From Candidatus Omnitrophota bacterium (lineage in GTDB: Bacteria; Omnitrophota; Gorgyraeia; Zapsychrales; Zapsychraceae): a stretch of 64,000 nucleotides of DNA. Where the stretch lies: contig JAJDCB010000029.1 in the NCBI GenBank assembly GCA_029261065.1, positions 15,448 through 79,447 on the forward strand, given 5' to 3'. The notes beneath the pieces are model-generated. The model saw nothing but the letters and a program-made list of their open reading frames with translations. It made no database searches and was not told the origin of the DNA. Shown in pieces: positions 3,776 to 43,727 of the stretch (within the stretch, counting starts at the first letter, position 1; each line of letters begins with the position of its first letter). Position numbers and translations under genes: made by a program.

Positions 3776-3909
3776 AGATGAAAAATTTAATTTTTCAAAG
3801 AGCACCTTTATATCAAAGTTTTTTAACGCTGTAAAGCAATTAATTAAGTGAATTCCTTGGATCTCCTCATAGCTTGGCTGTAAGGATATTCACACTTGAA
3901 AGACGAAAA

Positions 3910-4731
3910 ATGACAATTCAAACATTTGAAAAAGAAGCTTTAAAGAAAAAGGCTGTTTTATTTCGTAAAGAAATTCTTCAAGTTACGAATGCCGCCGGAT
4001 CTGGTCATCCAGGTGGATCTTTATCTGCTGTTGAGATATTAATCGCATTATATGATTATAAAATGAATCATAAACCCGATGACCCGCAATGGGAGGATCG
4101 TGATCGATTAATCATCTCAAAAGGCCATGTGACGCCTGTGACTTATGTGACTTTGGCGAATTATGGTTACTTTCCCAAGGAAGAGTTAAAAGGATTTAGA
4201 AAGTTTGATAGTATTCTGCAAGGACACGTGCATCGCAAAGTTCCTGGGGTTGAATTTAATACAGGCTCCTTGGGGCATGGATTGTCAGTGGTAAATGGTA
4301 TCGCGCTTGGAGCAAAACTCCAAAAGAAGAGTTTTCGTAGCTATTGTGTTATGGGGGATGGTGAGATCCAAGAGGGTTCAGTTTGGGAAGCTGCGATGAG
4401 TGCTGCTCATTTTAAGTTGGATAATGTTTGCGCTATTGTTGATTATAATAAAGTTCAAGAGAATGGTCCTACAAATGAAATCAAAAATTTAGAACCTTTA
4501 GCTGAGAAATGGCGTAGTTTCGGGTGGCATGCCATTGAGGTGATTGGTCATAATTTTGATCAATTGATAGCCGCCTTAGATCAGATAGATACGATAAAAG
4601 ATAAACCTTGTGTCATTATTGCTCATACCATAAAAGGAAAAGGTATTTCTTTTATGGAAGGAGAGCGTGGTTGGCATGGAAAAGCTCCTAATGATGAGCA
4701 ATTAGCAGAAGCCTTAAAAGAACTGGAATAA
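3910..4731 (+). CDS. tktA: transketolase, N-terminal (TPP-binding) subunit
   Basis: GHPGGSLSAVEIL TPP-binding motif and GHG...GDGE motifs; about 270 aa split-type transketolase. The ORF opens at TTG 3874; ATG 3910 (MTIQTF...) is the likelier start. Confidence 0.8.
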   Translation: MTIQTFEKEALKKKAVLFRKEILQVTNAAGSGHPGGSLSAVEILIALYDYKMNHKPDDPQWEDRDRLIISKGHVTPVTYVTLANYGYFPKEELKGFRKFDSILQGHVHRKVPGVEFNTGSLGHGLSVVNGIALGAKLQKKSFRSYCVMGDGEIQEGSVWEAAMSAAHFKLDNVCAIVDYNKVQENGPTNEIKNLEPLAEKWRSFGWHAIEVIGHNFDQLIAALDQIDTIKDKPCVIIAHTIKGKGISFMEGERGWHGKAPNDEQLAEALKELE

Positions 4732-4761
4732 TTAATACATTTACCTTTGGAGTGCTTAAAT

Positions 4762-5718
4762 ATGTCAGAAAAAATGGTTCCTACGCGTGATGGATTTGGT
4801 AAAGAGTTGGTTGAAATAGGAAAGGCGAATGAAAAGGTCTTAGTTGTTTCAGCTGATTTAGAAGATGCCACAAGAGCAGAATATTTTAAAAACGAATTTC
4901 CTCAACGTTTCTTTTCGGTTGGAATCGCTGAACAAGATATGGTTGGAACAGCGGCTGGTTTAAGTCTTCAAGGTTTTGTTCCCTTTGTTAATTCTTTCGC
5001 CGTATTTATGACAAATCGTGCTTATGATATGATTCGTATCGATGTTTGTTACAATGATTGTAATGTCAAAATTATTTGTTCGCATGCTGGTGTTACTGTA
5101 GGACCTGACGGTGCGACAGCGCAATGTTTAGAGGATTTTGCTTTAATGAGAGTGTTGCCTAATTTAAAAGTTGTTTGTCCGGTTGATGAATTGGAAGCTC
5201 GAAAAGCAACACAGGTATTTGCAAAAGAGATAGGTCCTATGTATATGCGCACAAGTCGTTGTGCTTTTCCTGTACTCACAAAACCAGAGGATCCTTTTGT
5301 GATAGGAAAAGCGAATATTATGAGAGAAGGAAAAGATGCAACGATTATTGCTTGTGGGGTGCATGTGAGTGAAGGGTTAAAGGCCGCTGATATTTTGGCT
5401 CAAGAGGGTGTTGAGGTAAGGGTCGTGAATATGCATACGATCAAACCTATTGATGAAGAGATGATTATTTCATGTGCCAAGGAAACAGGCGCCATCATTA
5501 CAGCTGAAGAACATCAAAAGCATGGTGGATTAGGCAGTGCAGTTGCTGAGGTGGTTGTTAAACAATGTCCCGTTCCAATGGAGATGGTTGCTGTTGATGA
5601 TAGTTTTGGAAGGTCTGGTTCCCCTGAGGAATTACTTAAAGCTTATCATCTAAAAGATGTTGATATCGTTGAATCCATTAAGAAAGCTATCAAACGTAAA
5701 ACATTACAATCCGTTTAA
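4762..5718 (+). CDS. tktB: transketolase, C-terminal (pyrimidine-binding) subunit
   Basis: Homology pattern of the transketolase Pyr and C-terminal domains (AEQDMVGTAAGLS, FMTNRAYDMIR). The ORF opens at TTG 4747; ATG 4762 is preceded by GGAG. Confidence 0.8.
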   Translation: MSEKMVPTRDGFGKELVEIGKANEKVLVVSADLEDATRAEYFKNEFPQRFFSVGIAEQDMVGTAAGLSLQGFVPFVNSFAVFMTNRAYDMIRIDVCYNDCNVKIICSHAGVTVGPDGATAQCLEDFALMRVLPNLKVVCPVDELEARKATQVFAKEIGPMYMRTSRCAFPVLTKPEDPFVIGKANIMREGKDATIIACGVHVSEGLKAADILAQEGVEVRVVNMHTIKPIDEEMIISCAKETGAIITAEEHQKHGGLGSAVAEVVVKQCPVPMEMVAVDDSFGRSGSPEELLKAYHLKDVDIVESIKKAIKRKTLQSV

Positions 5719-5784: not shown

Positions 5785-6912
5785 ATGTCAAAGAGTACCA
5801 TTGAACAATTAGCAGAATTTGGGCAAAGTGCCTGGTTGGATTATATTAGTCGTTCGTTATTGGAATCTGATAAATTTAAAAATTTGATGGATCAAGGATT
5901 GCGTGGCATGACATCGAATCCTTCTATTTTTCAAAATGCGATTGGTGACTCTTCTGAATATGATCATGAAATTGTTCAATTAAAACAAAGTGGTAAAAGT
6001 TCTTTTGAGATCTATGATGCGTTAAGCATAGAGGATATTCAAAGAGCGGCAGATCAATTTAAAGGTGTGTACGAGGTGACAAATAAATTAGATGGTTATG
6101 TGAGTTTAGAGATAAATCCTTTATTAGCTAATAAAGTGGATGAGCAGATTGCTGAAGGCAAACGTTTATTTGAGAAAGTTGATCGAAAAAATGTCATGAT
6201 TAAAGTGCCTTCCACAGAAGAGGGCTTTGAGGTTATTGAAGAGTTGATTGCCAGTGGCATTAACGTTAATGTCACATTAATTTTTTCTTTAGAACAATAT
6301 ATTAAAACGGTTGAAGCTTACTTAAAAGGTTTAGAACGTTTGTCTCAAACCGATTTTGATTTAAATGATATCCGATCCGTGGCTAGTGTCTTTGTAAGTC
6401 GAGTTGACTCTACTGTTGATAAGCTATTAGATGATAAAATTGCAAAAACAACGGAAGAGACAAAAAAGACAGAGCTTTCTTGTTTAAAGGGAAAGACGGC
6501 CGTTTCTAACTCGCGCATTATTTTTGAAAAATACAAGGAGTTGTTTAACTCTGATCGATTTAAAGAGTTGGCCGCAAAAGGCGCGCAAGTTCAACGTGTC
6601 CTTTGGGGATCAACAAGTACAAAGAACCCTGCTTATAGTGATGTAAAATATGTAACAGAATTAATTGCACAACCTACTGTGAATACCATTCCAGAAAAAA
6701 CTCTTATTGCCTTTCTTGACCATGGTGAGGTAAAAGATGCCTTTACTTGGGATGCTGATAAAGCTTTTGAGACGATAGAGGCTCTTAAGAAAAACGGTAT
6801 TGACTGTGATGAGGTTTGTTCAAAATTATTGAATGATGGTTGTGTGGCCTTTAACCAAGCTTTTGAATCCTTGTTGGATTCTATTGAGAAGAAGGCCGCT
6901 CAATTAGTATAA
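5785..6912 (+). CDS. tal: transaldolase (long form)
   Basis: 375-aa ORF with transaldolase-family N-terminus (AEFGQSAWLDYISRSLL...GMTSNPSIF). Follows tktAB. Confidence 0.75.
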   Translation: MSKSTIEQLAEFGQSAWLDYISRSLLESDKFKNLMDQGLRGMTSNPSIFQNAIGDSSEYDHEIVQLKQSGKSSFEIYDALSIEDIQRAADQFKGVYEVTNKLDGYVSLEINPLLANKVDEQIAEGKRLFEKVDRKNVMIKVPSTEEGFEVIEELIASGINVNVTLIFSLEQYIKTVEAYLKGLERLSQTDFDLNDIRSVASVFVSRVDSTVDKLLDDKIAKTTEETKKTELSCLKGKTAVSNSRIIFEKYKELFNSDRFKELAAKGAQVQRVLWGSTSTKNPAYSDVKYVTELIAQPTVNTIPEKTLIAFLDHGEVKDAFTWDADKAFETIEALKKNGIDCDEVCSKLLNDGCVAFNQAFESLLDSIEKKAAQLV

Positions 6913-6960
6913 AAGTGTCTCTATCATGAGCTCATTTATAGAGATACTTTGGATAAGCTT

Positions 6961-7887
6961 ATGATAAATTCATCTTCCCACCACATACAAGATGCCAATT
7001 GGCTCAATACCCCTACCCAAGATAAACGTGGATACATTGAACCCCAAACATTAAAAGAACTCTGGTTTCATACAGGAACGATTTGTAATTTAAGTTGTCC
7101 CTTTTGTCTAGAGGGATCAAAGCCTGGAGATGATCGTCTGAATAAGATTACATTAGATGATGTAAAACCTTTGGTTGAAGAAGCTCTTGAGGTGGGAGTG
7201 GAACGATTTTCTTTTACAGGTGGCGAGCCGTTTGTAATTAAGGATATGGTTAAGATACTAGACTATTGTTTGGATTTTCGTCCTTGTTTAGTTCTTACCA
7301 ATGCCACAGCCCCGCTGCAGAAGAGATTGGATGATATTAAACCTCTTCTTGATAAAAAGCATGATCTTAATTTTAGAGTGAGTTTCGATTATCATGATTC
7401 CAAAAAACACGATCAAGGCCGAGGAGAAGGTAATTTTGAGGTGGCTTTACAAACGCTTGGCAAATTAAATGCCTTAGGCTTTAATGTCTCCATTGCAAGA
7501 CAACGTGAGAAAGAAGAGCAGGTTGATGAAGTTGAAGCTGCCTATCATAATCATTTTAAGCGTGTGGGTGTGGCTGATAATACGCGTATTGTCAGCTTTC
7601 CTGACTTTTTAACGCCGGGTTCCATTCCCCATGTTCCTCATATTACAGAAAATTGTATGACAACATATCACAGTCAAGAATCTCGAGATAATTTTATGTG
7701 TAATTTTAGTAAGATGATTGTCAAAAAAAATGGTAAAATGCGTGTCTATGCTTGTACATTGGTGGATGATGATGAAAATTATGATTTAGGCTCAACATTA
7801 AAAGACTCTATGAAATATCGTGTGATGATGAAACATCACAGATGTTATTCTTGTTTTGCGCAAGGGGCGAGTTGTAGTGAAATTTAA
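6961..7887 (+). CDS. radical SAM protein with C-terminal Cys-rich tail, candidate ArsS-like (TIGR04167-type) enzyme
   Basis: CNLSCPFC is a CX3CX2C radical-SAM cluster motif near the N-terminus. GGEPF glycine-rich SAM motif is present. C-terminus CYSCFAQGASCSEI is Cys-rich. The ORF opens at TTG 6949; first ATG is at 6961. Confidence 0.5.
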   Translation: MINSSSHHIQDANWLNTPTQDKRGYIEPQTLKELWFHTGTICNLSCPFCLEGSKPGDDRLNKITLDDVKPLVEEALEVGVERFSFTGGEPFVIKDMVKILDYCLDFRPCLVLTNATAPLQKRLDDIKPLLDKKHDLNFRVSFDYHDSKKHDQGRGEGNFEVALQTLGKLNALGFNVSIARQREKEEQVDEVEAAYHNHFKRVGVADNTRIVSFPDFLTPGSIPHVPHITENCMTTYHSQESRDNFMCNFSKMIVKKNGKMRVYACTLVDDDENYDLGSTLKDSMKYRVMMKHHRCYSCFAQGASCSEI

Positions 7888-7907
7888 TTTTTAATATTTA
7901 TGAAGTG

Positions 7908-8693
7908 ATGATTATGAATCTAAAACAAAAAGTTCTTATCTTTGAAACACCTTACGACATTTCAAACTATTTGTTAAAGCAATGGTCTTTGATCGCGGAA
8001 AAAACGTTAGAAAATCAAGATCATTTTCGAGTGGCCTTAGCAGGTGGGAAGACACCACAGGAGTTTTACAGTCGTCTTTCAGCTTTTCGTGCTTATGATC
8101 AATGGCATCGGACGCACGTGTGTTTAACAGATGAACGGTATTGTCAAGAAGATGATCCAAACAATAACTATCGAATGATAAAAGAAAAGCTTCTTAATTA
8201 TGTATCTATACCAGAGGAAAATAGTTATTCCATATCTCAGGATCAGAAAGACGCGCAACAAGCGGCTGACAATTATCAAACGTTTTTAAAGGGAATGTTT
8301 CAAACAGAAAATCAAGAATTTCCTTCTTTTGATTTTATGCTATTAGGAATGGGGAGTGATGGGCATACAGCTTCTTTATTTCCTGGGGACTCAGCGATAA
8401 GTGAAGATACGTCATGGACACTAGCTGTTAAGCAGCACGCGCTTACTTATGAAAGAATTAGTTTAAGTTTACCTGTCCTTAATCATGCCAAAAATATATT
8501 TTTTTTAATTTGTGGTCAAGATAAAGCGGAGATGGCTGAGAAAATTTTTATCCAAAAATTAAGGTTTCCTGCTGGATGTATTAATCCTGTTGATGGTATG
8601 TGTCATTATTTATTGGATCGCCAAGCAGCGGCTCGTTTACCCTATTTGGATTCATTCGTGGAAGAAGAAGGTGGGCTTGTTGTTGAGCTTTGA
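7908..8693 (+). CDS. pgl: 6-phosphogluconolactonase
   Basis: NagB/Pgl family motifs ALAGGKTPQEFY and LGMGSDGHTASLFPG. Completes the tkt-tal-pgl block. GTG 7905 is an alternative start. Confidence 0.75.
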   Translation: MIMNLKQKVLIFETPYDISNYLLKQWSLIAEKTLENQDHFRVALAGGKTPQEFYSRLSAFRAYDQWHRTHVCLTDERYCQEDDPNNNYRMIKEKLLNYVSIPEENSYSISQDQKDAQQAADNYQTFLKGMFQTENQEFPSFDFMLLGMGSDGHTASLFPGDSAISEDTSWTLAVKQHALTYERISLSLPVLNHAKNIFFLICGQDKAEMAEKIFIQKLRFPAGCINPVDGMCHYLLDRQAAARLPYLDSFVEEEGGLVVEL

Positions 8694-9101: not shown

Positions 9102-10571
9102 ATGGATCCGTGGAAAAGTATTTCAGGTTTGTCTCAAGAAGAATGTCGAGCTTCTCAAAGTAAAAAATTACACACCTTTTTAAATCAATATATCTATCCT
9201 TTTAGCCCGCATTACAGAGCACTTTTTGATAAGCATAAAATTAATCCTAAGAAAATTAAAACCATCTCAGATTTAAAGCATATTCCCTTTACATCAAAAG
9301 CAGATTTTGTGGAATCGGATCCAAAAGACTTTGTCTTGCAACCGGATGCCGATAAGATAAAAAAAGCTTGGCCGCTTCCGAAGATATCCCAAATGGCTTT
9401 CCAGAAAATATTTCGTGGTGAGAAATACTTGCAGCATAATCTTTCAAAAGAATTTCGCCCTGTCTTTATGACATTTACAACAGGGACAACGAATAAGCCC
9501 GTGCCATTTTTTTACAGCAACTATGATATTAAAAATTTAGAAACCTCCGGTGCTCGTTTGTTGGGTCTGTTTGATGTGGATCAAAATCAAAAATTCGTTA
9601 ACATGTTTCCCTATGCGCCACATTTGGCTTTTTGGCAAGTTGTTTTAGGTGGGTTTGCTTCTTGTAATTTGATACTCAGTACAGGTGGGGGGAAGGTTAT
9701 GGGGACAGATGGTAATATTGCGGCCATTGAAAAGATGCGACCGACACTTATTTTGGGTGTTCCAAGTTATGTCTATCATGTGCTGCGAACAGCGAAAGAG
9801 CGTGGCATTAACATGGATTATATGAAAAAGATTGTATTAGGGGCTTCAAAGGTAACAACAGCATTTAAGATAAAGCTTGCGCAATTATTAGAGTCTATGG
9901 GAGCGCGTGATGTGTCTGTATTTGGAACTTACGGATTTACAGAGTCGCGAGCAGCATGGGGCGAATGCCCGACAGCGTTAGACATCTCAAGTGGATACCA
10001 TCTTTATTCAGATAAAGAAATTTTTGAGGTTATTGATCCAAAGACAGGGGAAGTTAAAGGAGAAGGTGAAGATGGTGAGTTGGTATATACCTCCCTTGAT
10101 TCGCGCGCGAGCAGTGTTATACGTTATCGCACGGGTGATTTTGTAAAGGGCGGCATTGTTTTTGGTGAATGTCCGCATTGCAAACGTATTACTCTTCGTA
10201 TCTCAAGTGACATTACACGGCTTTCCGATGTGAAAGGTTTAAATCTTTCAAAGGTTAAAGGGTCTTTAGTCAATCTTGGAAATTTTGCAGCGATTTTTTC
10301 TGAACTTGATTTAATTGAAGAATGGCAAATTGAATTGCGTAAAAAAAATAATGATGCTTTTGATATGGATGAGTTAGTTATGTATGTGTGTGCGAAGGAT
10401 AATTGTGTGGAAGAGGAGTTAAGAAACGAAATTGTTAAAGTTATGTCATTAGCAACGGAGGTGTCTCCTAATGAAATTATTTTTGTATCAATGAAAGAGA
10501 TGGTGGCTCGTTTGGAGATTGAAACCGCAAATAAAGAAAAAAGGATTATCGATAATAGGCCAAAGGCTTAG
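9102..10571 (+). CDS. adenylate-forming enzyme, PaaK/F390-synthetase-like acyl-CoA ligase
   Basis: TTGTTNKP matches the PaaK-family P-loop-like motif (SSGTTGKP). About 490 aa. First gene of a beta-oxidation block. Confidence 0.5.
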   Translation: MDPWKSISGLSQEECRASQSKKLHTFLNQYIYPFSPHYRALFDKHKINPKKIKTISDLKHIPFTSKADFVESDPKDFVLQPDADKIKKAWPLPKISQMAFQKIFRGEKYLQHNLSKEFRPVFMTFTTGTTNKPVPFFYSNYDIKNLETSGARLLGLFDVDQNQKFVNMFPYAPHLAFWQVVLGGFASCNLILSTGGGKVMGTDGNIAAIEKMRPTLILGVPSYVYHVLRTAKERGINMDYMKKIVLGASKVTTAFKIKLAQLLESMGARDVSVFGTYGFTESRAAWGECPTALDISSGYHLYSDKEIFEVIDPKTGEVKGEGEDGELVYTSLDSRASSVIRYRTGDFVKGGIVFGECPHCKRITLRISSDITRLSDVKGLNLSKVKGSLVNLGNFAAIFSELDLIEEWQIELRKKNNDAFDMDELVMYVCAKDNCVEEELRNEIVKVMSLATEVSPNEIIFVSMKEMVARLEIETANKEKRIIDNRPKA

Positions 10572-10585
10572 AAGAGGATCACACT

Positions 10586-11872
10586 ATGGAAAAAATAGTT
10601 GTCGTTAATGGAATTCGCACGCCGTTTTGTAAGATGGGAACAGATTTTAATAATCTTTCGGCCCAAGAGTTAGGACGCATTGCCTTAAGAGAGTTGATTG
10701 AACGAACCCCTTTTGAATTGTCTGAATTAGATGAAGTAATCATCGGCTGTGTAGGACAGCCAGCTGATGCTGCTAATTTGGCTCGCGTTGTGGCCCTTTT
10801 AGCAGGGATACCAAACGAAATTCCTGCTTTTACTGTTCATCGTAATTGTGCCTCGGGTATTGAAGCTGCCGTTCAAGCTGCGATAAAAATTAGAGCGAAT
10901 GAGGGGACTTGTTATTATGTCGGTGGAACAGAGTCGATGTCGAACATTCCTTTTTATTTAAAGAAATCTCTGCAAGATCAATTGGCTCTCCTTCAACGGG
11001 CCAAGACAATGGGGCAGCGTCTTAAAATTATGGTGCCTTTTTTTAAGAGATATTTAAATCCGATGGCTTCATTAGAAATTGGTTTGAAACTTGGGTTAAC
11101 TGATCCTGTCTGTGGATTAAATATGGGCCAGACGGCAGAGGTCTTAGCTAAAGAATTTGGAATTACAAGAGAAGAACAGGATGATTTTGCCCTTTTAAGT
11201 CATCAAAGAGCGATTGAGGGACGTGAAGTTTTAAAAGAAGAAATTGTCCCTGTGATTCCTGCTCCCAAATTTAAAAAAGGTGTTGAGTTTGATAATGGAC
11301 CACGTGAAGGACAATCAATGGAAGCGTTACAAAAGTTGCGCCCCTTTTTTGATAGACGCAGTGGGTCGGTGACAGCCGGAAATTCAAGTCAAATTACAGA
11401 TGGTGCAGCGATGTTATTAATCATGACAGAATCCAAGGCGCGCGATCTTAATTTGGAAATTCTTGGAACGATTAAGGAGTTTGCCTTCTCAGGGGTAGAA
11501 CCCAATCGTATGGGCATAGGTCCAGCCCATGCCATTCCAAAAGTTCTAAAAAAAGCTAATATGAAATTATCGGATATTGAAGCTGTCGAAATCAACGAAG
11601 CCTTTGCCGCTCAAGTTCTCGCTTGTCTGCGCGCCCTTGAATCTGATCAATTTACAAAAGATTTTGGTTGCGAGGGATACACAGGTGTCATTGATCCATC
11701 TATTTTAAATGTCAATGGTGGCGCGATTGCATTAGGACATCCCGTTGGAACAACAGGAGCGCGATTGATTTTAACAATGTTGAAACATTTAGAACGTAAA
11801 AATCTTAACACCGGTTTAGTATCGTTGTGTATTGGTGGCGGTCAAGGGGCTGCTGTCATTCTTGAGCGTTAG
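10586..11872 (+). CDS. fadA: acetyl-CoA C-acyltransferase (thiolase)
   Basis: Thiolase signatures: NRNCASGIEA (active-site Cys) and C-terminal CIGGGQGAAVILE. Confidence 0.85.
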   Translation: MEKIVVVNGIRTPFCKMGTDFNNLSAQELGRIALRELIERTPFELSELDEVIIGCVGQPADAANLARVVALLAGIPNEIPAFTVHRNCASGIEAAVQAAIKIRANEGTCYYVGGTESMSNIPFYLKKSLQDQLALLQRAKTMGQRLKIMVPFFKRYLNPMASLEIGLKLGLTDPVCGLNMGQTAEVLAKEFGITREEQDDFALLSHQRAIEGREVLKEEIVPVIPAPKFKKGVEFDNGPREGQSMEALQKLRPFFDRRSGSVTAGNSSQITDGAAMLLIMTESKARDLNLEILGTIKEFAFSGVEPNRMGIGPAHAIPKVLKKANMKLSDIEAVEINEAFAAQVLACLRALESDQFTKDFGCEGYTGVIDPSILNVNGGAIALGHPVGTTGARLILTMLKHLERKNLNTGLVSLCIGGGQGAAVILER

Positions 11873-11887
11873 GGTAAGAATAACCAA

Positions 11888-12083
11888 GGTACAAGATACA
11901 AGAAATCCCACCTATGGGTGGGATCCCGCTTTTAGCGGGGCAAAAAAGAGACAATAACCAATAAACAAAAATAAAATGTTTGGTTATTTAATTATTGGGT
12001 TTTGATTATTTTTTGCCCGGCATCTAGAGATGCCGAGGTCCCGCCAACGGCGGGATATCTTGTAACTTGTTTCTTGTATCTTT
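11888..12083. repeat. structured intergenic element: imperfect inverted repeats flanking four GC-rich hairpins
   Basis: Outer arms ggtacaagatacaagaaatccc and gggatatcttgtaacttgtttcttgtatcttt are mutual reverse complements (imperfect). Inner hairpins: cccacc-tatg-ggtggg, cccgc-tttta-gcggg, cggcatc-taga-gatgccg, cccgcc-aac-ggcggg. Confidence 0.4.
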
Positions 12084-12117
12084 GTTAAACTATTAAAAGT
12101 ATAAAAAGGATTCGATT

Positions 12118-14253: not shown

Positions 14254-14332
14254 ATATTACAAAAATTTGCAAAAATGATGAATTGTATTAGAATATTGTA
14301 ATCAAAAAATTATGAATAAGGAATCTTTCTAA

Positions 14333-28448: not shown

Positions 28449-29159
28449 ATGAATGAGCTTTCTGAAAATTCTTATATTTCAGTTATAATTCCTGCCTTCA
28501 ACGAAGAAGTCTCCTTACCCAAAGTCATCAATGACATTCCCAAAAATATTGTTAAAGATATTATTGTCGTTAACAATGCCAGTACAGATAATACTCCTGA
28601 AGTGGCTCGTAACATGGGATGTATTGTCGTTGAGGAGCTTAAAAAGGGTTATGGACAAGCGTGTCTTGCTGGAATTGCTGCCTTAAACCCTAAAACAGAC
28701 ATTGTTGTTTTTTTAGATGGTGATCATAGTGATCATCCTGAGCAAATGCAAAAACTCATTGATCCTATGGGTCGAGACGGTATTGATTTTGTTATTGGAT
28801 CACGTGCTTTAGGAGAAAGAGAGCGGGGAGCAATGGCTCCTCAGGCTTTTTATGGCAATAAGCTTGCGTGTTTCTTAATGAAATTGTTTTGGGGCTACAC
28901 GTACACAGATCTCGGACCATTTAGAGCCATTAATTATCAAGCCCTTAAGCGTTTAAATATGATCGATCAGGATTTTGGCTGGACAATCGAAATGCAGATT
29001 AAAGCGATTGAATGTGGTTTAAAAATTAAAGAAGTCCCTGTCGATTATCGTAGACGTATAGGTAAATCTAAGATTTCAGGTACATTTAAAGGAACGCTTT
29101 TAGCAGGTGAGAAGATATTGCGTACTATTTTTAAGTATAAATTTTTCGTAAAAAAGTAA
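28449..29159 (+). CDS. GT2 polyprenyl-phosphate sugar synthase (Dpm1/Ppm1-like)
   Basis: SVIIPAFNEE, DGDHSD (DXD), 236 aa. Soluble GT-A. Confidence 0.65.
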   Translation: MNELSENSYISVIIPAFNEEVSLPKVINDIPKNIVKDIIVVNNASTDNTPEVARNMGCIVVEELKKGYGQACLAGIAALNPKTDIVVFLDGDHSDHPEQMQKLIDPMGRDGIDFVIGSRALGERERGAMAPQAFYGNKLACFLMKLFWGYTYTDLGPFRAINYQALKRLNMIDQDFGWTIEMQIKAIECGLKIKEVPVDYRRRIGKSKISGTFKGTLLAGEKILRTIFKYKFFVKK

Positions 29160-29165
29160 TCTAAA

Positions 29166-30725
29166 ATGACAGACCACTTGAATAAAAAGATTGTCTTACT
29201 GGGAACCCTCTCAACCCTAATTTGGGTTTTTGTGATGATGATGTCTAAGGGATTGCCTGTGTTTTTTTGTCAGTGGTTAGATGCTATTTCCTTTCAGATG
29301 TTGACCAAAGAAATTATGCAAATGACTCATGGTTTTTATTATCAGGTCAACAACAATGATATGCCTACCGTTATTTATATCGGTTTTTTTATGATATGCT
29401 TTTTAATTATGCTTTATTTAGTGCGACGTCTTGAGAAGAATAAAAGACAAGATTTTGTTTTGGGTTGGATTGTATTGTTTTCCATACTCTTTCGCTGTGT
29501 CTTACTTCCTGCAGAACCTATCCATGAAAATGATTTTTACCGGTATCTGTGGGATGGAAAATCAGCCAATCACGGTATAAACCCTTTTAAATATGCTCCG
29601 GCTGATTTATCAATCTATGAAGCTCAGCTTAATGAAGATTTCTTAGATTTTGACAGCGAGGAGGTTCAAGAAATAAAAGAATTTAGAGAAGATGATTTTA
29701 AAAAACTGGATCATCTTATTGAATTACGCGATCAGAATTACCTTTTTTATGAGCGTATCGGGCATCAAGAAGTACCAACCATTTATCCACCTGTAGCCCA
29801 AGGAATCTTTGCAGGCATCACATTCTTATGGGAAGATCACTTTGTTTTTATGAAGATAATTTTTATGCTTTTTGATATAGGTGTGATATTTCTTATCATC
29901 GCTTTATTGTCGCATCTTAAATTAAATCCCTGCATGGTTATTATTTATGGTTGGTCGCCATTAGTTTTAAAGGAATTTGCTATCTCCGGACATTATGATT
30001 CTATCCCGATATTTTTTACCACTTTAAGTTTGTTTTTATTAGTAAAAGGCAAACAGTTAGGAGGCTCTGTGTTTTTGGCCATGGCTGCGTTATCAAAGTT
30101 TTTCTCAGGGTTATTGTTGCCCTTGTACTTTCGAAAAATGAAGTTTATTTATCTTTTTTGTTTTGCTCTTATTTGTGTGGTGTTTTATGTGCCCTATGTG
30201 CTTTGGAATGATACAGGTCTTCATGGCGTTTTTAAAGGGTTACATGTTTATAATCAAGAATGGAATTATAACTCTAGTGTTTTCGCGGGCGTTTATCTAT
30301 TGTTAGATAAGTTCATGCCGCAACTAACAAATGAGCTATTAAACGTTAAATTAATTGTAGCGGGGATATATGGCTTGATTGTCTTAACAATGGCTGCTAT
30401 CGCGCATCGAAACGATTTAGACTTTTTACATAAGTGCTTCCTTGCTATAGCTTTACTGTTTATTTTTAACCCAGTAGGAGATCCATGGTATTTTTGCTGG
30501 GCGATTCCATTGTTGTGCCTTTTTCCTTATAGATCTTGGATTTGGTTGTCTGGTTTATTAATTTTGAGTTATTTGAATTTTCATAGTGATTTGGGTGTTA
30601 TTAATGATAGATGGTTAGATATTCCAATAATCAGTTGGGTCATATACATACCTTTTTTCTTATATGTATTATTTGAGTTAGTGACAAAAAAATGTAAGGT
30701 TAATGATATTTTGACGACTAAATGA
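29166..30725 (+). CDS. GT-C-type integral membrane glycosyltransferase (DUF2029/PimE-like)
   Basis: 519 aa, more than 10 TM segments. Immediately downstream (7-nt gap) of the Dpm1-like GT2. Confidence 0.4.
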   Translation: MTDHLNKKIVLLGTLSTLIWVFVMMMSKGLPVFFCQWLDAISFQMLTKEIMQMTHGFYYQVNNNDMPTVIYIGFFMICFLIMLYLVRRLEKNKRQDFVLGWIVLFSILFRCVLLPAEPIHENDFYRYLWDGKSANHGINPFKYAPADLSIYEAQLNEDFLDFDSEEVQEIKEFREDDFKKLDHLIELRDQNYLFYERIGHQEVPTIYPPVAQGIFAGITFLWEDHFVFMKIIFMLFDIGVIFLIIALLSHLKLNPCMVIIYGWSPLVLKEFAISGHYDSIPIFFTTLSLFLLVKGKQLGGSVFLAMAALSKFFSGLLLPLYFRKMKFIYLFCFALICVVFYVPYVLWNDTGLHGVFKGLHVYNQEWNYNSSVFAGVYLLLDKFMPQLTNELLNVKLIVAGIYGLIVLTMAAIAHRNDLDFLHKCFLAIALLFIFNPVGDPWYFCWAIPLLCLFPYRSWIWLSGLLILSYLNFHSDLGVINDRWLDIPIISWVIYIPFFLYVLFELVTKKCKVNDILTTK

Positions 30726-30778: not shown

Positions 30779-31570
30779 ATGAAAAATTGGCATGTCGTTG
30801 TTATTTGTTCATTGGGTCTTTTTTTGATATCTTGTAATCAGCCGACTAAAGTGTCTTCTCAGGAAAAGGTTGTTAGCTCATCAAAAATACTCGTTGACTA
30901 TAATATTTGGAATAATGTCTTAAGGACATACGTTAATGATGAAGGGCTGGTGAATTATGATGGTCTTAAGGCGAATCGTGGGAAGCTCGATCAATTCGTT
31001 GCTCAAGTGAAAACGGCAAATATAGACTCATTAAGCTCAAATGAAAAAAAGACGTTTTGGATTAACGCCTATAATGCTTTAACCTTAAATCTTATTGTTG
31101 ATAATTATCCTCTAAAATTTGGTGGGATTCGAACGATTAATTGGGGTAGGCCATGGAGTATTAAGATGAAGGTGGCTAACCAAGATTTGACATTAGGCGA
31201 GATTGAGCATGAGATTTTAAGAAAATGGGATCCCATTGATCCTCGTATTCATTTTGCCATCAATTGCGCCTCTATTGGATGTCCTAAATTACCCAATAAA
31301 CCCTTCTACCCTGAAACCTTGGATGAACAGTTAGAGTTTGAAGCCAAACGTTTTATCAATGATAAAGAAAAAATTCGGTTAGATAAAACTACAAATATCC
31401 TTCATTTCTCGGCTATTCTCGATTGGTTTAAGGATGATTTCTTGGTTGTGGAAGAGGACATCTTAAGTTATATTAAGAGATATCTTAACGAGGAAGATGT
31501 GAACTATTTAGAGAGCCATGAGGTAACATTAAAGGCGTCAAAGTATGATTGGGGTTTAAATAAAAAATAG
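30779..31570 (+). CDS. DUF547 domain lipoprotein
   Basis: Lipobox LISCNQ. YNALTLNLIVDNYPL and IHFAINCASIGCP match DUF547. Confidence 0.5.
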   Translation: MKNWHVVVICSLGLFLISCNQPTKVSSQEKVVSSSKILVDYNIWNNVLRTYVNDEGLVNYDGLKANRGKLDQFVAQVKTANIDSLSSNEKKTFWINAYNALTLNLIVDNYPLKFGGIRTINWGRPWSIKMKVANQDLTLGEIEHEILRKWDPIDPRIHFAINCASIGCPKLPNKPFYPETLDEQLEFEAKRFINDKEKIRLDKTTNILHFSAILDWFKDDFLVVEEDILSYIKRYLNEEDVNYLESHEVTLKASKYDWGLNKK

Positions 31571-31595
31571 TACGGATAAGATGAAGGAGAGGGAT

Positions 31596-32648
31596 ATGGA
31601 AACGTTTACACATCAAAAAGTATCAGAATATTACGGGAAGGTATTAAAGACAAAAAATGATTTAAAAACAAGTGCGTGTTGCACGTTAGATAAATTGCCG
31701 GTATATGTCAGAGAGCCTTTAAAGCTTATAGAAGATGAAATTCAAACAAAATTTTATGGGTGTGGATCGCCTTTTCCATTAGTGCTGGATGGTATGAAAG
31801 TTCTTGATTTAGGTTGTGGGACGGGGCGTGATTGTTTTGTCCTAAGTTATTTTGTAGGTGAAAAAGGTGAGGTTGTTGGGGTTGATATGACAAAGGAGCA
31901 GCTTGAGGTTGCCCATCGATATACGTCCATTCAGATGGAGAAGTTTGGATATAAGAAACCGAATGTTAAATTTTTTCATGGGTATATTGAAAATCTTCAA
32001 GAAATTGAGCTGCCAGATAATTATTTTGATATTGTTATTTCTAATTGTGTTGTGAACTTATCACCGGATAAACCTTCTGTTTTAAAAGAAGTTTTTCGTG
32101 TTTTAAAAGAGGGGGGCGAGTTCTTTTTTTCTGATGTCTATGCCGATCGTCGTTTGCCTCAGTGGGCGCGTGAAGATCAAGTTCTTTTGGGAGAGTGTTT
32201 GGGAGGGGCTTTGTATTGGAAAGATTTTGAACGGTTGGCTAAGAATACAGGCTTTAATGATCCGCGCGTCTTTGCCTGCTCTAAAATTGATTTACATGAT
32301 CAAGAAACTATTGATAAAATTGGATTTGCACATTTTAATTCTATTACATATCGCCTTTTTAAATTAAAAAATCTTGAAGATGCCTGTGAAGATTTTGGTC
32401 AGGTCGCAACATACAAGGGAACAATTAAAGAAAGCAAGCATCAGTTTATGTTAGATAATCATCACCTCTTTGAAGAGGGAAAGCCGATGCTTGTCTGTTC
32501 GAACACAGCCAGTATGCTAGAAGATACGCGTCTTAATAAACATTTTGATATTGAAGGAGATCTTTCTACACATTACGGGTTATTTGAAGGGTGTGGTGAA
32601 TCTCCTATTGAAAGTGATTCTGATAAACCAGCTGGAGGGTGTTGTTAG
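31596..32648 (+). CDS. arsM: arsenite S-adenosylmethionine methyltransferase (ArsM/AS3MT family)
   Basis: SAM motif I VLDLGCGTGRDCF. ArsM-conserved Cys contexts TSACCTLD (N-terminal Cys pair), ISNCVVNLSPDK and LLGECLGGALYW. ATG 31596 preceded by AAGGAGAG; the ORF opens at 31581. Confidence 0.65.
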   Translation: METFTHQKVSEYYGKVLKTKNDLKTSACCTLDKLPVYVREPLKLIEDEIQTKFYGCGSPFPLVLDGMKVLDLGCGTGRDCFVLSYFVGEKGEVVGVDMTKEQLEVAHRYTSIQMEKFGYKKPNVKFFHGYIENLQEIELPDNYFDIVISNCVVNLSPDKPSVLKEVFRVLKEGGEFFFSDVYADRRLPQWAREDQVLLGECLGGALYWKDFERLAKNTGFNDPRVFACSKIDLHDQETIDKIGFAHFNSITYRLFKLKNLEDACEDFGQVATYKGTIKESKHQFMLDNHHLFEEGKPMLVCSNTASMLEDTRLNKHFDIEGDLSTHYGLFEGCGESPIESDSDKPAGGCC

Positions 32649-32666
32649 CTTTAGATCATATATCAC

Positions 32667-33317
32667 ATGCCCATTGATATCATCATCCCCATTCTCAACG
32701 AAGAAAAAATTCTTACCGAAAAAAAAGACTACTATTCCAAACTACAGAAATTTTCCAATGTTGTCTTTGTTGATGGCGGTAGTTCTGATCGTTCTATAGC
32801 AGTGGCAGCCCAGTATGGAGAGGTTATTGAATCAAAGAAGGGACGAGCCTTTCAGAAAAACTTTGGTGCCAAACATACCCAATCCGAATTCCTCCTATTT
32901 TTACATGTTGATTCTTTTATAAATACAAAAAGTCTTAAAAAAATTGTTTCTCTATTAGAAAAGAAGAGTGTGGCTGGATGTTTTCAAATGAAAATTTTAG
33001 ATACGAGATTGATTTTTCGGTTATATGAATGGGCAGTCAATACAAGAGCGAAAACTTTAAAAGTCCTTGATGGCGATTTAGGCTTGTTTATCAGGCGTGA
33101 CGTTTTTGAAGGTTTAAATGGCTATGATCAATTGCCAGTGATGGATGACATTGTCTTTTCTAAACGTTTGCGAGATAAAGGAGAAGTTGCCATATTAGAT
33201 GACGCGATTTATGTCTCTAGCCGTAAATGGCATGAAAGTGGTTTTTATATCACGTTATTTCAATATTCTTGGGCGTATTTGAAACTGTGGTTTGGCATTC
33301 TAAGGCCTTCAAAATAA
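32667..33317 (+). CDS. glycosyltransferase, TIGR04283-like (rSAM/selenodomain-associated transferase 2 type)
   Basis: IIIPILNEE...FVDGGSSD GT-A signature. 216 aa. 19 nt downstream of arsM. Confidence 0.5.
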   Translation: MPIDIIIPILNEEKILTEKKDYYSKLQKFSNVVFVDGGSSDRSIAVAAQYGEVIESKKGRAFQKNFGAKHTQSEFLLFLHVDSFINTKSLKKIVSLLEKKSVAGCFQMKILDTRLIFRLYEWAVNTRAKTLKVLDGDLGLFIRRDVFEGLNGYDQLPVMDDIVFSKRLRDKGEVAILDDAIYVSSRKWHESGFYITLFQYSWAYLKLWFGILRPSK

Positions 33318-41829: not shown

Positions 41830-43059
41830 ATGGGGAAATTCTGCACTAGACCATTTGAATGGATTGAGATCCAGAATAAAGACGCTTATCTGTGTTGTCC
41901 GGGTTGGATGAAGGACATAAAGGGGGTAAGTATTGAGGGTAAGAGTGTCAATGAGATATGGAATGACCCTCATTTTCAGGATATCCGAGCATCCATTTTA
42001 GATGGTTCCTTTCGATACTGTGATTCTCAGTTTTGTCCGTTTATGAAGCAGCCAGATATGCCTCATTGGGAGGAGAGTGGTTCGCCTTTCAAAGATAAGG
42101 ATGGTATAAAAGATCCAGCCTTGCGTCATATTATTGAGCAGAAAATCACTCATTTAGAATCTCCCCCATTGATTTGGAATTGTGGTCATGATAGGACGTG
42201 TAATTTGTCATGTCCTTCTTGTCGCAGCAAGATTTTTGCGTTAGCCCAGCAATATGTTCAAAAAGAAATAGCCTTTAGTGATTTCGTTTTATCGGAAATT
42301 GGTCAAGACTTGAAATATCTTTATATCACCGGAACAGGTGATCCTTTCGCCAGTCAAGTTTATCGAGAACTTTTATCACAGTTATCATCAGAACAATATC
42401 CAAAATTAGAGGTGCATCTGCATACCAATGCTGTTTTATGGACGAAAAAGAATTGGGAGACCATGAGTGGCATTAATCAACGTATCACATCAACACATAT
42501 CTCTATGGATGCGGTAACGGCACAGACGTATGGCATTGTTCGTCGAGGAGGCGACTTTGGTATCTTGATGGAAAATCTTAAGTTTGTGGCACAGTTAAGA
42601 AAAGAAGGGCCGTTGAAATACGTTATGATTAGTTTTGTTGTTCAAGATGCTAATTTTCGTGAGATGCCTCGCTTTATTGAAATTTGTGAAGAGTTTGGTT
42701 TTGATTTGGTTTTGTTTACGAGGGTAAGAAATTGGAATCTTTTTACACCCTATGAGTTTGATCAACTAGCTGTTGATCAACCCATTCATCCCGATCATAA
42801 TGCATTTTTAGATATCTTAAAGCAGCCCTGTTTTGACAAACCTCATGTTGGTATTGGAAATTTTTCAGGATTAAGAAAGAAAGCTTTGGCTCAATCTTCG
42901 CAAAAGAAAATCGTTTCGGTTACAGAGAATATGGTTTATCGATATCAGTGGTATGTTAGACGATTGAAACAATGGTTCATTGAGCACTTTCCAATTCTTG
43001 CCAAACAATTGATTCATTTGAAACAACGGATTTTAAGAAAGGGAAAGCTCGCAGCGTGA
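41830..43059 (+). CDS. radical SAM protein with N-terminal Cys-rich extension
   Basis: CNLSCPSC (CX3CX2C) at about aa 120. N-terminal extension with 5 Cys (CTRPFEW...YLCCPGW...RYCDSQFCPF). Stop overlaps the next gene's start (GTGA). Confidence 0.5.
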   Translation: MGKFCTRPFEWIEIQNKDAYLCCPGWMKDIKGVSIEGKSVNEIWNDPHFQDIRASILDGSFRYCDSQFCPFMKQPDMPHWEESGSPFKDKDGIKDPALRHIIEQKITHLESPPLIWNCGHDRTCNLSCPSCRSKIFALAQQYVQKEIAFSDFVLSEIGQDLKYLYITGTGDPFASQVYRELLSQLSSEQYPKLEVHLHTNAVLWTKKNWETMSGINQRITSTHISMDAVTAQTYGIVRRGGDFGILMENLKFVAQLRKEGPLKYVMISFVVQDANFREMPRFIEICEEFGFDLVLFTRVRNWNLFTPYEFDQLAVDQPIHPDHNAFLDILKQPCFDKPHVGIGNFSGLRKKALAQSSQKKIVSVTENMVYRYQWYVRRLKQWFIEHFPILAKQLIHLKQRILRKGKLAA

Positions 43060-43727
43060 AGAAGGTTCATTCTCTCATTATTTTTGCAAGGGAACCGCGA
43101 GAGGGGAAAGTTAAAACGCGATTAGCCAAAGATTTATCAAAGCCAGTTGTTTTAAGTTTGTATAAAAATTTTATTAAAGATGTTCTAATTGTTGCCAAAA
43201 AAGTCTCCTCTCAGAGGCGCTATATTTTTTATGTGGGATTAAGCCGCTCCATTCCATTTTTAAGATCTTATCAAAAGTCATTTATATTAAAACGTCAATT
43301 TGGTAAAGACTTAGGAGAGAGGATGTTAAGAGCCTTTCTTTGTGCTGCCCGGGAAGGGGCCCATTCGACCATTATTATCGGAACGGACTGTTTGACGATC
43401 ACAGCGAAAGATATTGAAGCGGCTTTTGCCAAACTAAAAACGCATGATTGTGTCTTAGGCCCAAGCATTGATGGTGGGTATTACCTAATAGGTCTAAATA
43501 AACCCTGTCCCAGCTTATTTAATGATATAGTTTGGAGCACGGAAAAGGTTCTTGATCAAACGTTAAAACGGGCAAAGAGCAATAATATGAAGGTGGCTTT
43601 ATTATCCAAAAAAGAGGATATCGATACGATTTCTTCTTTTAGGAAATATGCTAAAAAGGTTGTCAATTCTTCTGAGGATTCGTATACTAGGAGACTAATT
43701 AAGACTCGTTTATTGAGCGAAATTTAG
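43056..43727 (+). CDS. DUF2064 / TIGR04282-like nucleotidyl-transferase-fold protein (rSAM/selenodomain-associated transferase 1 type)
   Basis: N-terminus SLIIFAREPREGKVKTRLA is the hallmark DUF2064 motif. GTG start overlapping the upstream TGA. Confidence 0.5.
   Translation: MKKVHSLIIFAREPREGKVKTRLAKDLSKPVVLSLYKNFIKDVLIVAKKVSSQRRYIFYVGLSRSIPFLRSYQKSFILKRQFGKDLGERMLRAFLCAAREGAHSTIIIGTDCLTITAKDIEAAFAKLKTHDCVLGPSIDGGYYLIGLNKPCPSLFNDIVWSTEKVLDQTLKRAKSNNMKVALLSKKEDIDTISSFRKYAKKVVNSSEDSYTRRLIKTRLLSEI

Follow-up and report, generated by a model that had tools for sequence, protein, structure and literature searches.

The window, the whole 64-kb stretch of DNA analyzed here, carries a radical-SAM (rSAM) gene within an operon of pentose-phosphate enzymes, which raises the question of what such an enzyme does in this place. 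The first-pass annotation called the location unusual and proposed that the protein matches ArsS (TIGR04167). ArsS was characterized from Synechocystis sp. PCC 6803, where its gene is co-transcribed with arsM, and it forms the arsenic-carbon bond with which arsenosugar synthesis begins.

Results

The rSAM open reading frame starts with ATG, ends with a TAA stop codon at 7885-7887 and encodes a protein of 308 amino acids (Table 1), the form also given by the public gene call (P0001). A TTG codon at position 6949, four codons 5′ of the ATG, is an alternative start. The reading frame proposed initially thus holds, but its length of 309 amino acids had been obtained by counting in the stop codon. 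The Pfam profile PF04055 matched the protein at 59.6 bits (cutoff of 29.5), and its AlphaFold model has a pLDDT of 94. In an alignment of 43 family sequences with 27 to 75% identity (A2), residues C42, C46 and C49 of the CX3CX2C motif are invariant, and this motif is expected to be the ligand set for the SAM-cleaving [4Fe-4S] cluster. The C-terminal domain is twitch/SPASM-like and holds five conserved cysteines: C247, C265, C295 and C298 are invariant and C305 is conserved in at least 90% of the sequences. The Cys-rich tail CYSCFAQGASC reported previously was found at residues 295 to 305 (nt 7843-7875), and the ORF contains no in-frame TGA, as had also been stated. The gene is real, and its GC content (0.375) and GC3 (0.285) equal those of the adjoining genes; since, in addition, the arrangement is kept in relatives, a recent insertion was ruled out. 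Homologues with E ≤ 1e-3 numbered 3,408, and each of the best 120 of these is at least 61% identical to the protein. Public annotation calls family members merely 'radical SAM protein'.

Table 1. Positions of the features discussed in the text, numbered from the first letter of the window
Feature	Position	Strand	Evidence
Transketolase, N-terminal (TPP-binding) half; opens the conserved tkt-tkt-tal-rSAM block	3874..4731	+	PF00456, NF004559, synteny
Transketolase, C-terminal half	4747..5718	+	PF02779, PF02780
Transaldolase (tal), adjoins rSAM on the 5′ side	5785..6912	+	NF002881, 450.5 bits, above cutoff of 367
Radical-SAM enzyme, 308 aa, assigned to an unnamed ArsS sister family	6961..7887	+	ORF, PF04055, homologues, hhalign
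CX3CX2C motif CNLSCPFC, residues 42-49	7084..7107	+	Alignment A2, codon positions
C-terminal Cys constellation C247, C265, C295, C298, C305	7699..7875	+	Alignment A2, hhalign
6-Phosphogluconolactonase (pgl), adjoins rSAM on the 3′ side	7905..8693	+	TIGR01198, 171 bits, above cutoff of 124
GT2 glycosyltransferase (AglJ/dolichyl-phosphate-hexose-transferase-like)	28449..29159	+	HMM; orthologues near DUF547/ArsM-like/rSAM genes in loci L036, L068, L095
Membrane protein, 519 aa, about 9 predicted TM segments, adjoins GT2	29166..30725	+	Hydropathy; homologues in L036, L068
DUF547 protein	30779..31570	+	PF04784
ArsM-like SAM methyltransferase; ArsM Cys motifs SACC, YGCG, SNCVVN and GECLGG all four present	31581..32648	+	NF008823, motifs
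TIGR04283-family 'arsenosugar biosynthesis glycosyltransferase'	32667..33317	+	192.6 bits, above cutoff of 182
TIGR04282-family (DUF2064, CofC-like) 'arsenosugar biosynthesis glycosyltransferase'	43056..43727	+	191.7 bits, above cutoff of 134

The neighbors proposed initially were confirmed by HMM searches, and the gene indeed lies between tal and pgl; the presumed tktA and tktB paralogs, however, turned out to be the two halves of one split transketolase. The gaps measure 48 nt between tal and rSAM and 17 nt between rSAM and pgl, no terminator-like site was found in either of them, and rSAM is probably co-transcribed with the transketolase, transaldolase and pgl genes. The synteny comparison suggested in the first-pass annotation revealed the tkt-tkt-tal-rSAM order, with gaps of 2 to 48 nt and with tal directly beside rSAM, in eight of the nine close homologues sampled (63 to 75% identity). 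The order persists even where pgl and the genes beyond it vary, and pgl is missing 3′ of rSAM in L086/L087 and L093/L094. Shared synteny extends over more than 12 kb and takes in genes for acyl-CoA synthetase, thiolase, ECH/3HCDH, a PsbP-like protein and a tRNA methyltransferase; with such unrelated genes included, the pattern suggests that the lineage keeps its gene order in general. Neither tal nor pgl was ever found beside a family member in about 80 loci of other phyla. The odd placement is therefore genuine but constitutes the conserved order of a single lineage: it is a trait of the Omnitrophota-type lineage and no pointer to new sugar chemistry. As the family elsewhere resides in arsenic-type clusters, the operon says little about function.

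The proposed match to ArsS was upheld in its architecture, an rSAM core followed by a Cys-rich C-terminal domain, and failed at the level of the TIGR04167 model itself. This NCBIfam equivalog model scored 55.8 bits (E = 4e-15) against a curated cutoff of 300, and 20 relatives with 28 to 61% identity likewise fell below the cutoff, reaching about 72 bits at most. The alignment to the model nevertheless runs the full length, from residues 27 to 305 of the protein and 3 to 299 of the 303 model positions. Comparison of the family alignment with three PGAP-annotated ArsS proteins by hhalign gave a probability of 99.2% (E = 6e-20) over 271 columns. The C-terminal region reads HHRCYSCFAQGASC in our protein and DHCYGCTAGQGSSC in the three annotated ArsS, and all five cysteines align (C247 with C250, C265 with C265, C295 with C302, C298 with C305 and C305 with C313 of ArsS). 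GxxU is the Sec motif of ArsS, in which this position is selenocysteine in some members (PMC13188914). Its counterpart here is G302-A-S-C305, so that C305 occupies the position of the ArsS selenocysteine. Global identity to true ArsS was only 18 to 20% in a MAFFT alignment, which misaligned part of the C-terminal domain; C265 appeared family specific in that alignment, a reading rejected because hhalign pairs it with C265 of ArsS. Blocks conserved in the family, e.g., ELWFHTGT, FSFTGGEPF and ACTLVDDD, differ from those of ArsS. Both proteins comprise about 300 to 350 amino acids with a single CX3CX2C motif and, judged by this profile homology, the protein is a member of a large, deep and unnamed sister family of ArsS.

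The highest-scoring NCBIfam model was not TIGR04167 but that of the Rv1681 family (NF049973; Rv1681 is 'MoeX' of Mycobacterium tuberculosis), with 103.1 bits against a membership cutoff of 380. This likeness covers the rSAM core (residues 32 to 211 against positions 72 to 246 of 326) and ends before the C-terminal Cys domain, and no common gene context was seen. The first-pass annotation had named a better match to another rSAM subfamily, together with loss of the C-terminal Cys motif, as evidence against ArsS; another subfamily does score best, albeit below its own cutoff, whereas the Cys motif is kept. Models for SPASM/twitch peptide maturases (e.g., SkfB, SuiB and the mycofactocin MftC) all scored far below their cutoffs, as did MoaA models (40 to 42 bits against 231 to 325), and no small-ORF or RiPP context recurred in about 80 loci. 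Foldseek against the PDB returned generic twitch/SPASM rSAM enzymes (SkfB, BlsE, SuiB and MoaA) with TM-scores of 0.5 to 0.6 and no ArsS structure, and the PDB sequence search yielded no informative relative, its top match being a spurious one to a designed repeat protein.

Two known systems offer partial parallels. Adenosyl-hopene transferase, HpnH, is an rSAM enzyme that adds 5′-deoxyadenosyl to its substrate, a lipid, rather than abstracting hydrogen, and a nucleoside phosphorylase/nucleosidase (HpnG) then removes the adenine. The HpnH model matched our protein weakly (42.5 bits against 225); the HpnH-HpnG pair parallels the pairing of the family with MTAP. ArsL of arsinothricin biosynthesis also forms an As-C bond and works with ArsM, but it moves a 3-amino-3-carboxypropyl group and not 5′-deoxyadenosyl, and its tail motif (RCCLKC) differs. 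In ArsL, As(III) is bound by the Cys-rich C-terminal tail and not by an auxiliary cluster (bioRxiv 10.1101/2024.02.01.577332). No ArsL model was among the best 25 NCBIfam matches listed for our protein.

We surveyed the gene context of the family in 65 genome loci, counting ArsM-like genes within 6 kb. A DedA-FAD reductase gene was found in 33 of these loci, TIGR04283 in 22, an ArsM-like gene in 21 (mostly directly upstream of rSAM), TIGR04282 in 20, MTAP in 14 and ArsC in 3. In support of a functional link, ArsM-like and rSAM domains are fused in either order (ArsM-rSAM in P0122 and P0141, rSAM-ArsM in P0123 and P0258), with all Cys motifs of both parts retained in P0122 and P0123, and P0179 is a TIGR04282-rSAM fusion. 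The annotated arsS clusters on plasmids of Acinetobacter, Burkholderia and Hymenobacter hold DedA::FAD-reductase, DUF547, TIGR04283, TIGR04282, ArsM-like methyltransferase, phosphate transporter and mtnP genes, and DUF547 recurs in L035, L036, L038 and L068 as well as in the arsS clusters of Acinetobacter and Hymenobacter. ArsS and the family thus share ArsM-like, TIGR04282, TIGR04283, MTAP, DedA::FAD-reductase, DUF547 and phosphate transporter neighbors, and the link to arsM drawn initially is true at the family level. No canonical ArsS accompanied a family member in the 65 loci or in the window. Collectively, these data revealed that, within this conserved gene cluster, the family takes the place of ArsS.

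In the window itself, the ArsM-like gene lies 23.7 kb downstream of rSAM, as the 24 kb given in the first-pass annotation had indicated, and the presumed partners at 28.4-33.3 kb are 21 to 24 kb away from rSAM, with a further one at 43.1-43.7 kb. This distance and the sugar-phosphate operon set the locus apart from arsS, and no MTAP or DedA-reductase gene was found in the 64 kb. The ArsM-like methyltransferase scored 176.6 bits with NF008823, below the arsenite-methyltransferase cutoff of 263, and is 50.6% identical to the methyltransferase of the Acinetobacter arsS cluster; it is the probable supplier of a methylated As(III) substrate. The GT2 gene probably belongs to the displaced partner cluster, and the adjoining 519-aa membrane protein matched no Pfam or NCBIfam model. 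The order unk519-GT2-DUF547-ArsM-rSAM-ArsC-MTAP occurs in L036 and L068, and a single cluster in L095 unites rSAM (68% identical), the methyltransferase (70.7%) and GT2 (66.7%). In the Omnitrophota-type lineage, the rSAM gene is separated from its presumed partner cluster. The names of the two 'arsenosugar biosynthesis glycosyltransferase' families rest on co-occurrence rather than on assays. The window also encodes a second rSAM protein (41830-43059) of an N-terminal-SPASM family that is at times fused to GT2; it was considered as a counterpart of the 459-aa rSAM of a Roseomonas cluster and rejected, the similarity being undetectable.

Discussion

We regard it as reasonably likely, from homology and gene context, that the protein is an ArsS-like adenosylating enzyme of a sister family that acts on methylated As(III). 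Canonical ArsS, for which alone this activity is known, adenosylates DMAs(III) to DDMAA (PMC13598754). By analogy, As(III) would be methylated by the ArsM-like methyltransferase, and the rSAM enzyme would reductively cleave SAM and join the 5′-deoxyadenosyl group to the trivalent methylarsenical, giving a 5′-deoxy-5′-(dimethylarsinoyl)adenosine-type compound. In the tail, C305 corresponds to the Sec of ArsS and is likely to position the arsenical; the likely ligands of an auxiliary cluster are C247, C265, C295 and C298. An MTAP-type phosphorylase may then remove adenine, and the nucleotidyltransferase-like TIGR04282 protein and the GT2-type TIGR04283 protein would activate and transfer the arseno-ribosyl unit. 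Several observations argue against ArsS-like adenosylation. The TIGR04167 score is far below the cutoff, and with 18 to 20% identity to true ArsS the enzyme may catalyze another reaction or accept another substrate; the score of the partner methyltransferase is likewise subthreshold. An ArsM-like gene is missing within 6 kb in many loci, among them all those of Marinobacter, and a Roseomonas plasmid relative (34% identical) lies beside a phosphonate-type ABC transporter without ArsM. Finally, the partners in the window are distant and lack MTAP and the DedA-reductase.

Much of this would also suit a rather unlikely alternative, namely, that the enzyme serves the same pathway and cluster with another chemistry or substrate: adenosylation of monomethyl-As(III), action on another soft metalloid or chalcogen (Sb, Se or Te), or a different radical step on the ribosyl intermediate. 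In that case, the protein would be no ArsS isoenzyme but a paralogue that has a function of its own. The deep divergence from ArsS, the first rank of the Rv1681 model and the subthreshold score of the methyltransferase are compatible with this, as are the Roseomonas variant, whose cluster combines the phosphonate-type transporter with a Tes/TrsS-like second rSAM and lacks ArsM, and the selenoprotein link of many NCBIfam ArsM- and ArsS-family models. Yet the whole Cys constellation is common to ArsS, and the family and ArsS are mutually exclusive in otherwise equivalent clusters. Moreover, the same methyltransferase family partners canonical ArsS, an ArsC-like gene immediately follows rSAM in L002, L036 and L068, and transporters of the phosphate/arsenate type are present in both cluster types.

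A role in the pentose-phosphate pathway, with a radical step on a sugar phosphate or a 5-deoxy-pentose product passed on to transketolase and transaldolase, and with a secondary arsenic link, appears very unlikely. The block kept in eight of nine close homologues, even where pgl varies, and the terminator-free gaps fit such a role, and transketolase can use 5-deoxyribose derived from 5′-deoxyadenosine (PMC8102628). However, the synteny embraces unrelated genes over more than 12 kb, tal and pgl were never adjacent in the loci of other phyla, and the equally similar P0023 (68% identity) resides in an arsenic-type cluster. We consider it extremely unlikely that the protein matures peptides as a generic SPASM/twitch enzyme or acts as a cofactor enzyme of the MoaA/Rv1681 type. 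Leading NCBIfam matches do include Rv1681, WgkB, StsB and the mycofactocin maturase, and SkfB, SuiB, EpeE and MoaA are fold neighbors. These matches, though, are far below cutoffs and confined to the N-terminal rSAM core (residues ~30 to 210), in contrast to the full-length ArsS match; no precursor-peptide or molybdopterin genes recur beside the family, and TM-scores to solved maturases reach just 0.5 to 0.6.

ArsS is the sole enzyme family known to start arsenosugar synthesis and has been discussed mostly for cyanobacteria and algae. The family described here is a second one, with thousands of members, within ArsS-type arsenic clusters, and its carriers span marine heterotrophs (Marinobacter, Neptuniibacter, Colwellia and Alcanivorax), nitrifiers (Nitrosomonas), methylotrophs (Methylotenera) and Omnitrophota. 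The literature outside subscription journals yielded work on ArsS and ArsL and no description of a second, non-ArsS family. If the family is a functional equivalent of ArsS, surveys for arsS based on TIGR04167 miss much of the potential for organoarsenical synthesis. The partner set of MTAP, TIGR04282 and TIGR04283 suggests a testable route for the steps beyond the first As-C bond. In a highly unlikely extension, the enzyme would be deliberately co-expressed with transketolase and transaldolase in this lineage: these two might take the 5-deoxy-5-arsinoyl-ribose (or its 1-phosphate) that remains once adenine has been removed and form from it C7 arseno-sugars or, by way of cleavage, C2/C3 arsenicals (dimethylarsinoyl-ethanol or -acetate, for example), in parallel to the conversion of 5-deoxyribose to 7-deoxysedoheptulose by transketolase. 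If true, this would make the path that leads from arsenosugars to arsenobetaine, long unknown, accessible to genetics. Dimethylarsinoyl-ethanol and -acetate are proposed precursors of arsenocholine and arsenobetaine.

Position of the rSAM gene

The open reading frame of the radical-SAM (rSAM) protein runs from ATG to TAA, and a search for an in-frame TGA found none, which bears out the first-pass annotation of a real rSAM gene with a Cys tail; its 309 aa shrank to 308, as the stop codon had been counted. Residues 42-49 of the protein are CNLSCPFC, and its C terminus reads HHRCYSCFAQGASCSEI. HMM searches upheld the described order, with the gene lying between transaldolase (tal) and 6-phosphogluconolactonase (pgl), but the supposed tktA-tktB pair is one split transketolase (3874-5718, +), whose two genes, 15 nt apart, are halves (tktN, tktC) rather than paralogs. 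The bordering gaps measure 48 nt (tal side) and 17 nt (pgl side), no terminator-like site was found in either, and GC and GC3 of the rSAM gene are those of the adjoining genes.

Coordinates of the rSAM gene, its flanking genes, the candidate partner genes and a second rSAM gene
Feature	Position	Strand	Remarks
Transketolase, N-terminal TPP-binding half	3874-4731	+	HMM
Transketolase, C-terminal half	4747-5718	+	HMM
Transaldolase	5785-6912	+	HMM; upstream of rSAM
rSAM	6961-7887	+	ATG to TAA, 308 aa
6-Phosphogluconolactonase	7905-8693	+	HMM; downstream of rSAM
GT2, AglJ/dolichyl-phosphate-hexose-transferase-like	28449-29159	+
Nine-TM protein	29166-30725	+	519 aa, ~9 predicted TM segments; no family match
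DUF547 protein	30779-31570	+
ArsM-like methyltransferase	31581-32648	+	SACC, YGCG, SNCVVN, GECLGG
TIGR04283 protein	32667-33317	+	192.6 bits (cutoff 182)
Second rSAM	41830-43059	+	409 aa, CNLSCPSC
TIGR04282 protein	43056-43727	+	191.7 bits (cutoff 134)

Nine close homologues (63-75% identity) were sampled, several of them named Candidatus Omnitrophota or Omnitrophica in public records. In eight, tktN-tktC-tal lies directly upstream of the rSAM gene (gaps 2-48 nt), and two of these eight contexts lack pgl. Most keep the order for more than 12 kb, via acyl-CoA synthetase, thiolase, ECH/3HCDH, a PsbP-like gene and a tRNA methyltransferase. The synteny holding the rSAM gene therefore reaches far past the pentose-phosphate genes, which points to general gene-order conservation in the lineage rather than a specific functional operon. 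Thus, the noted placement inside a sugar-phosphate operon stands, as a lineage trait. One can conceive of a biochemical tie to the pentose-phosphate enzymes, since transketolase turns 5-deoxyribose (from 5'-deoxyadenosine via MTAP) into 7-deoxysedoheptulose (PMC8102628); we give it a low probability. The ninth homologue (P0023) lies in an arsenic-type cluster (locus L095).

The window region 9102-15967 (+) has the order of contigs L082, L084, L086, L096 and L097: a beta-oxidation set 3' of pgl (acyl-CoA synthetase, thiolase, fused ECH/3-hydroxyacyl-CoA dehydrogenase), then the PsbP-like gene. A tRNA U5-methyltransferase gene follows the latter in several Omnitrophota-type contigs.

Relationship to ArsS

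In an NCBIfam scan, the ArsS model TIGR04167, the family initially proposed, aligned with the whole protein at 55.8 bits against a cutoff of 300, and none of 20 scanned relatives reached the cutoff of ArsS or of Rv1681, the top-matching family (103 bits against 380, rSAM core only). The protein is therefore not ArsS by the curated test. PF04055 was the sole Pfam match. Judged by sequence, it is a member of a large family without any naming NCBIfam model: a 5.8-billion-protein collection yielded 3,408 homologues, the top 120 of which (61-75% identity, ~310 aa) bear names no better than "radical SAM protein", and among 1.84 billion cluster representatives, searched exhaustively, full-length relatives formed a gradient from 61% down to ~28% identity. 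No description of this ArsS-sister family was found in the literature accessible without subscription.

As ArsS references we used three PGAP-annotated plasmid genes, from Acinetobacter portensis, Hymenobacter volaticus and Burkholderia glumae. Global identity to them was just 18-20%. Profile-profile comparison with 43 family sequences gave a probability of 99.2% (E=6e-20, 271 columns) and paired all five C-terminal cysteines (window-ArsS: C247-C250, C265-C265, C295-C302, C298-C305, C305-C313). Family members at 27-75% identity all share C42, C46, C49, C247, C265, C295 and C298, and at least 90% conserve C305. G302-A-S-C305 is the counterpart of ArsS GxxU, the selenocysteine motif listed for TIGR04167 (PMC13188914), and the earlier statement that this position is Cys is therefore right. 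AlphaFold modelled the structure with confidence (pLDDT 94); the nearest solved folds are the twitch/SPASM-type rSAM enzymes SkfB, BlsE, SuiB, EpeE and MoaA (TM 0.5-0.6), and no ArsS structure was seen among the PDB sequence and fold search matches. Collectively, full-length homology, the five cysteines and an equivalent gene neighbourhood are common to both families, whereas their sequences are strongly diverged; the window protein is a deep sister of ArsS outside TIGR04167.

Gene neighbourhoods and partner genes

We counted genes within 6 kb of the rSAM gene at 65 reference-genome loci with a callable rSAM ORF, all beyond the Omnitrophota-type lineage, from taxa including Marinobacter, Neptuniibacter, Motiliproteus, Alcanivorax, Colwellia, Psychrobium, Nitrosomonas, Methylotenera, Desulfovibrionaceae and Zixibacteria. 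Neither tal nor pgl adjoined the gene at any of the 65. Its neighbours were a DedA::FAD-disulfide-reductase fusion (33/65), TIGR04283-like GT2 (22/65), an ArsM-like methyltransferase (21/65, mostly directly 5'), TIGR04282-like DUF2064 (20/65), MTAP (TIGR01694 above cutoff, 14/65), DUF547 (4/65) and, directly downstream, a thioredoxin-type ArsC-like gene (3/65). Annotated canonical arsS clusters have an equal partner set (bifunctional TVP38/FAD oxidoreductase, DUF547, TIGR04283, TIGR04282, methyltransferase, phosphate transporter, mtnP), and gene fusions point the same way: ArsM-rSAM (proteins P0122, P0141), rSAM-ArsM (P0123, P0258) and TIGR04282-rSAM (P0179), with P0122 and P0123 retaining four ArsM cysteine motifs and both rSAM motifs. 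The Acinetobacter arsS-cluster methyltransferase is 50.6% identical to the window ArsM-like protein, and this partner falls below the arsenite-methyltransferase cutoff in ArsS-sister and canonical Acinetobacter clusters alike. TIGR04282 and TIGR04283 owe their "arsenosugar" names to co-occurrence. Canonical ArsS stood beside the ArsS-sister rSAM in no examined locus, nor in the window.

The window ArsM-like gene lies 23.7 kb downstream of the rSAM gene, in agreement with the reported arsM about 24 kb away. In Psychrobium (L036) and Colwellia (L068), the equivalent genes lead directly into rSAM-ArsC-MTAP, and L095 unites in one cluster an rSAM, a methyltransferase and a GT2 that are 68%, 70.7% and 66.7% identical to their window counterparts, together with a TIGR04283-like GT2, a PHO4 transporter, a VTT/DedA protein and an FAD reductase. 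On this comparison, the most plausible reading of the gene at 6961 is an rSAM displaced from the window cluster at 28-33 kb. MTAP and DedA-reductase genes are absent from the 64-kb window.

Two further fusions occur within the rSAM superfamily, P0199 (522 aa) and P0169 (655 aa). In one, the C-terminal region weakly matches an HD-domain 5'-deoxynucleotidase; in one, the N-terminal region faintly resembles a YpdA-like flavoprotein.

Proposed function

ArsL binds As(III), not a cluster, with its Cys tail, and in Synechocystis arsS and arsM are co-transcribed. ArsS transfers a 5'-deoxyadenosyl group onto DMAs(III), yielding DDMAA (PMC13598754). By analogy, the ArsM-like partner would supply methylated As(III), on which the window rSAM would run an ArsS-type reaction; C305 and the CxxC would help hold the arsenical or, alternatively, form an auxiliary cluster with C247 and C265. 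MTAP would next remove adenine, and TIGR04282 and TIGR04283 would carry out nucleotidyl activation and transfer of the glycosyl unit.

We consider it very probable that the protein and ArsS act in one and the same arsenic pathway, and the proposed kinship, although not TIGR04167 membership, is sustained by the profile match, cysteines, neighbourhoods and fusions. An ArsS-like role is the reading we moderately favour, with the large sequence divergence as a caveat. Counting against it, the 6 kb around the Marinobacter rSAM contain no ArsM-like gene, and a relative on a Roseomonas plasmid (L089) has a Tes/TrsS-like rSAM and a phosphonate-type transporter as neighbours. That the protein serves the same pathway with a different substrate or at a different step seems to us unlikely; all other alternatives are improbable.

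At the Marinobacter loci (L035, L038, L042, L044, L045, L047, L059-L061, L078), the DedA::FAD reductase lies upstream of the rSAM gene, and a sodium:solute symporter and a 323-aa protein without NCBIfam match downstream; an ECF sigma/anti-sigma pair sits just upstream on the opposite strand. Marinobacter adhaerens HP15 plasmid pHP-187 (L088, NC_017507.1 90106-90988) bears a 55%-identical rSAM copy, found as two tblastn pieces overlying no annotated gene and, like the chromosomal loci, followed by a sodium:solute symporter; a pseudogene, or gaps in the plasmid gene table, could account for the missing annotation. The variant L089 cluster (Roseomonas haemaphysalidis plasmid NZ_CP061178.1, 6013-12973; relative 34.5% identical) reads TIGR04282, DUF547, Tes/TrsS-like rSAM (459 aa), rSAM (315 aa), PhnD/PhnE/ATPase-type ABC transporter and metallophosphoesterase. 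It contains no ArsM; VTT/DedA, FAD-oxidoreductase, DoxX and chalcone-isomerase-like genes lie nearby on the other strand.

The GT2 gene, with or without the membrane protein, recurs by DUF547/ArsM-like/rSAM genes in L036, L068 and L095, a recurrence that may reflect a polyprenyl-phosphate-linked step at the membrane within the pathway. The second rSAM gene of the window overlaps the TIGR04282 gene by 4 nt. Its family (1,651 homologues; N-terminal SPASM domain plus rSAM core) is unrelated to the ArsS-sister family, and some members, such as P0281 and P0349, are fused to GT2 glycosyltransferases.
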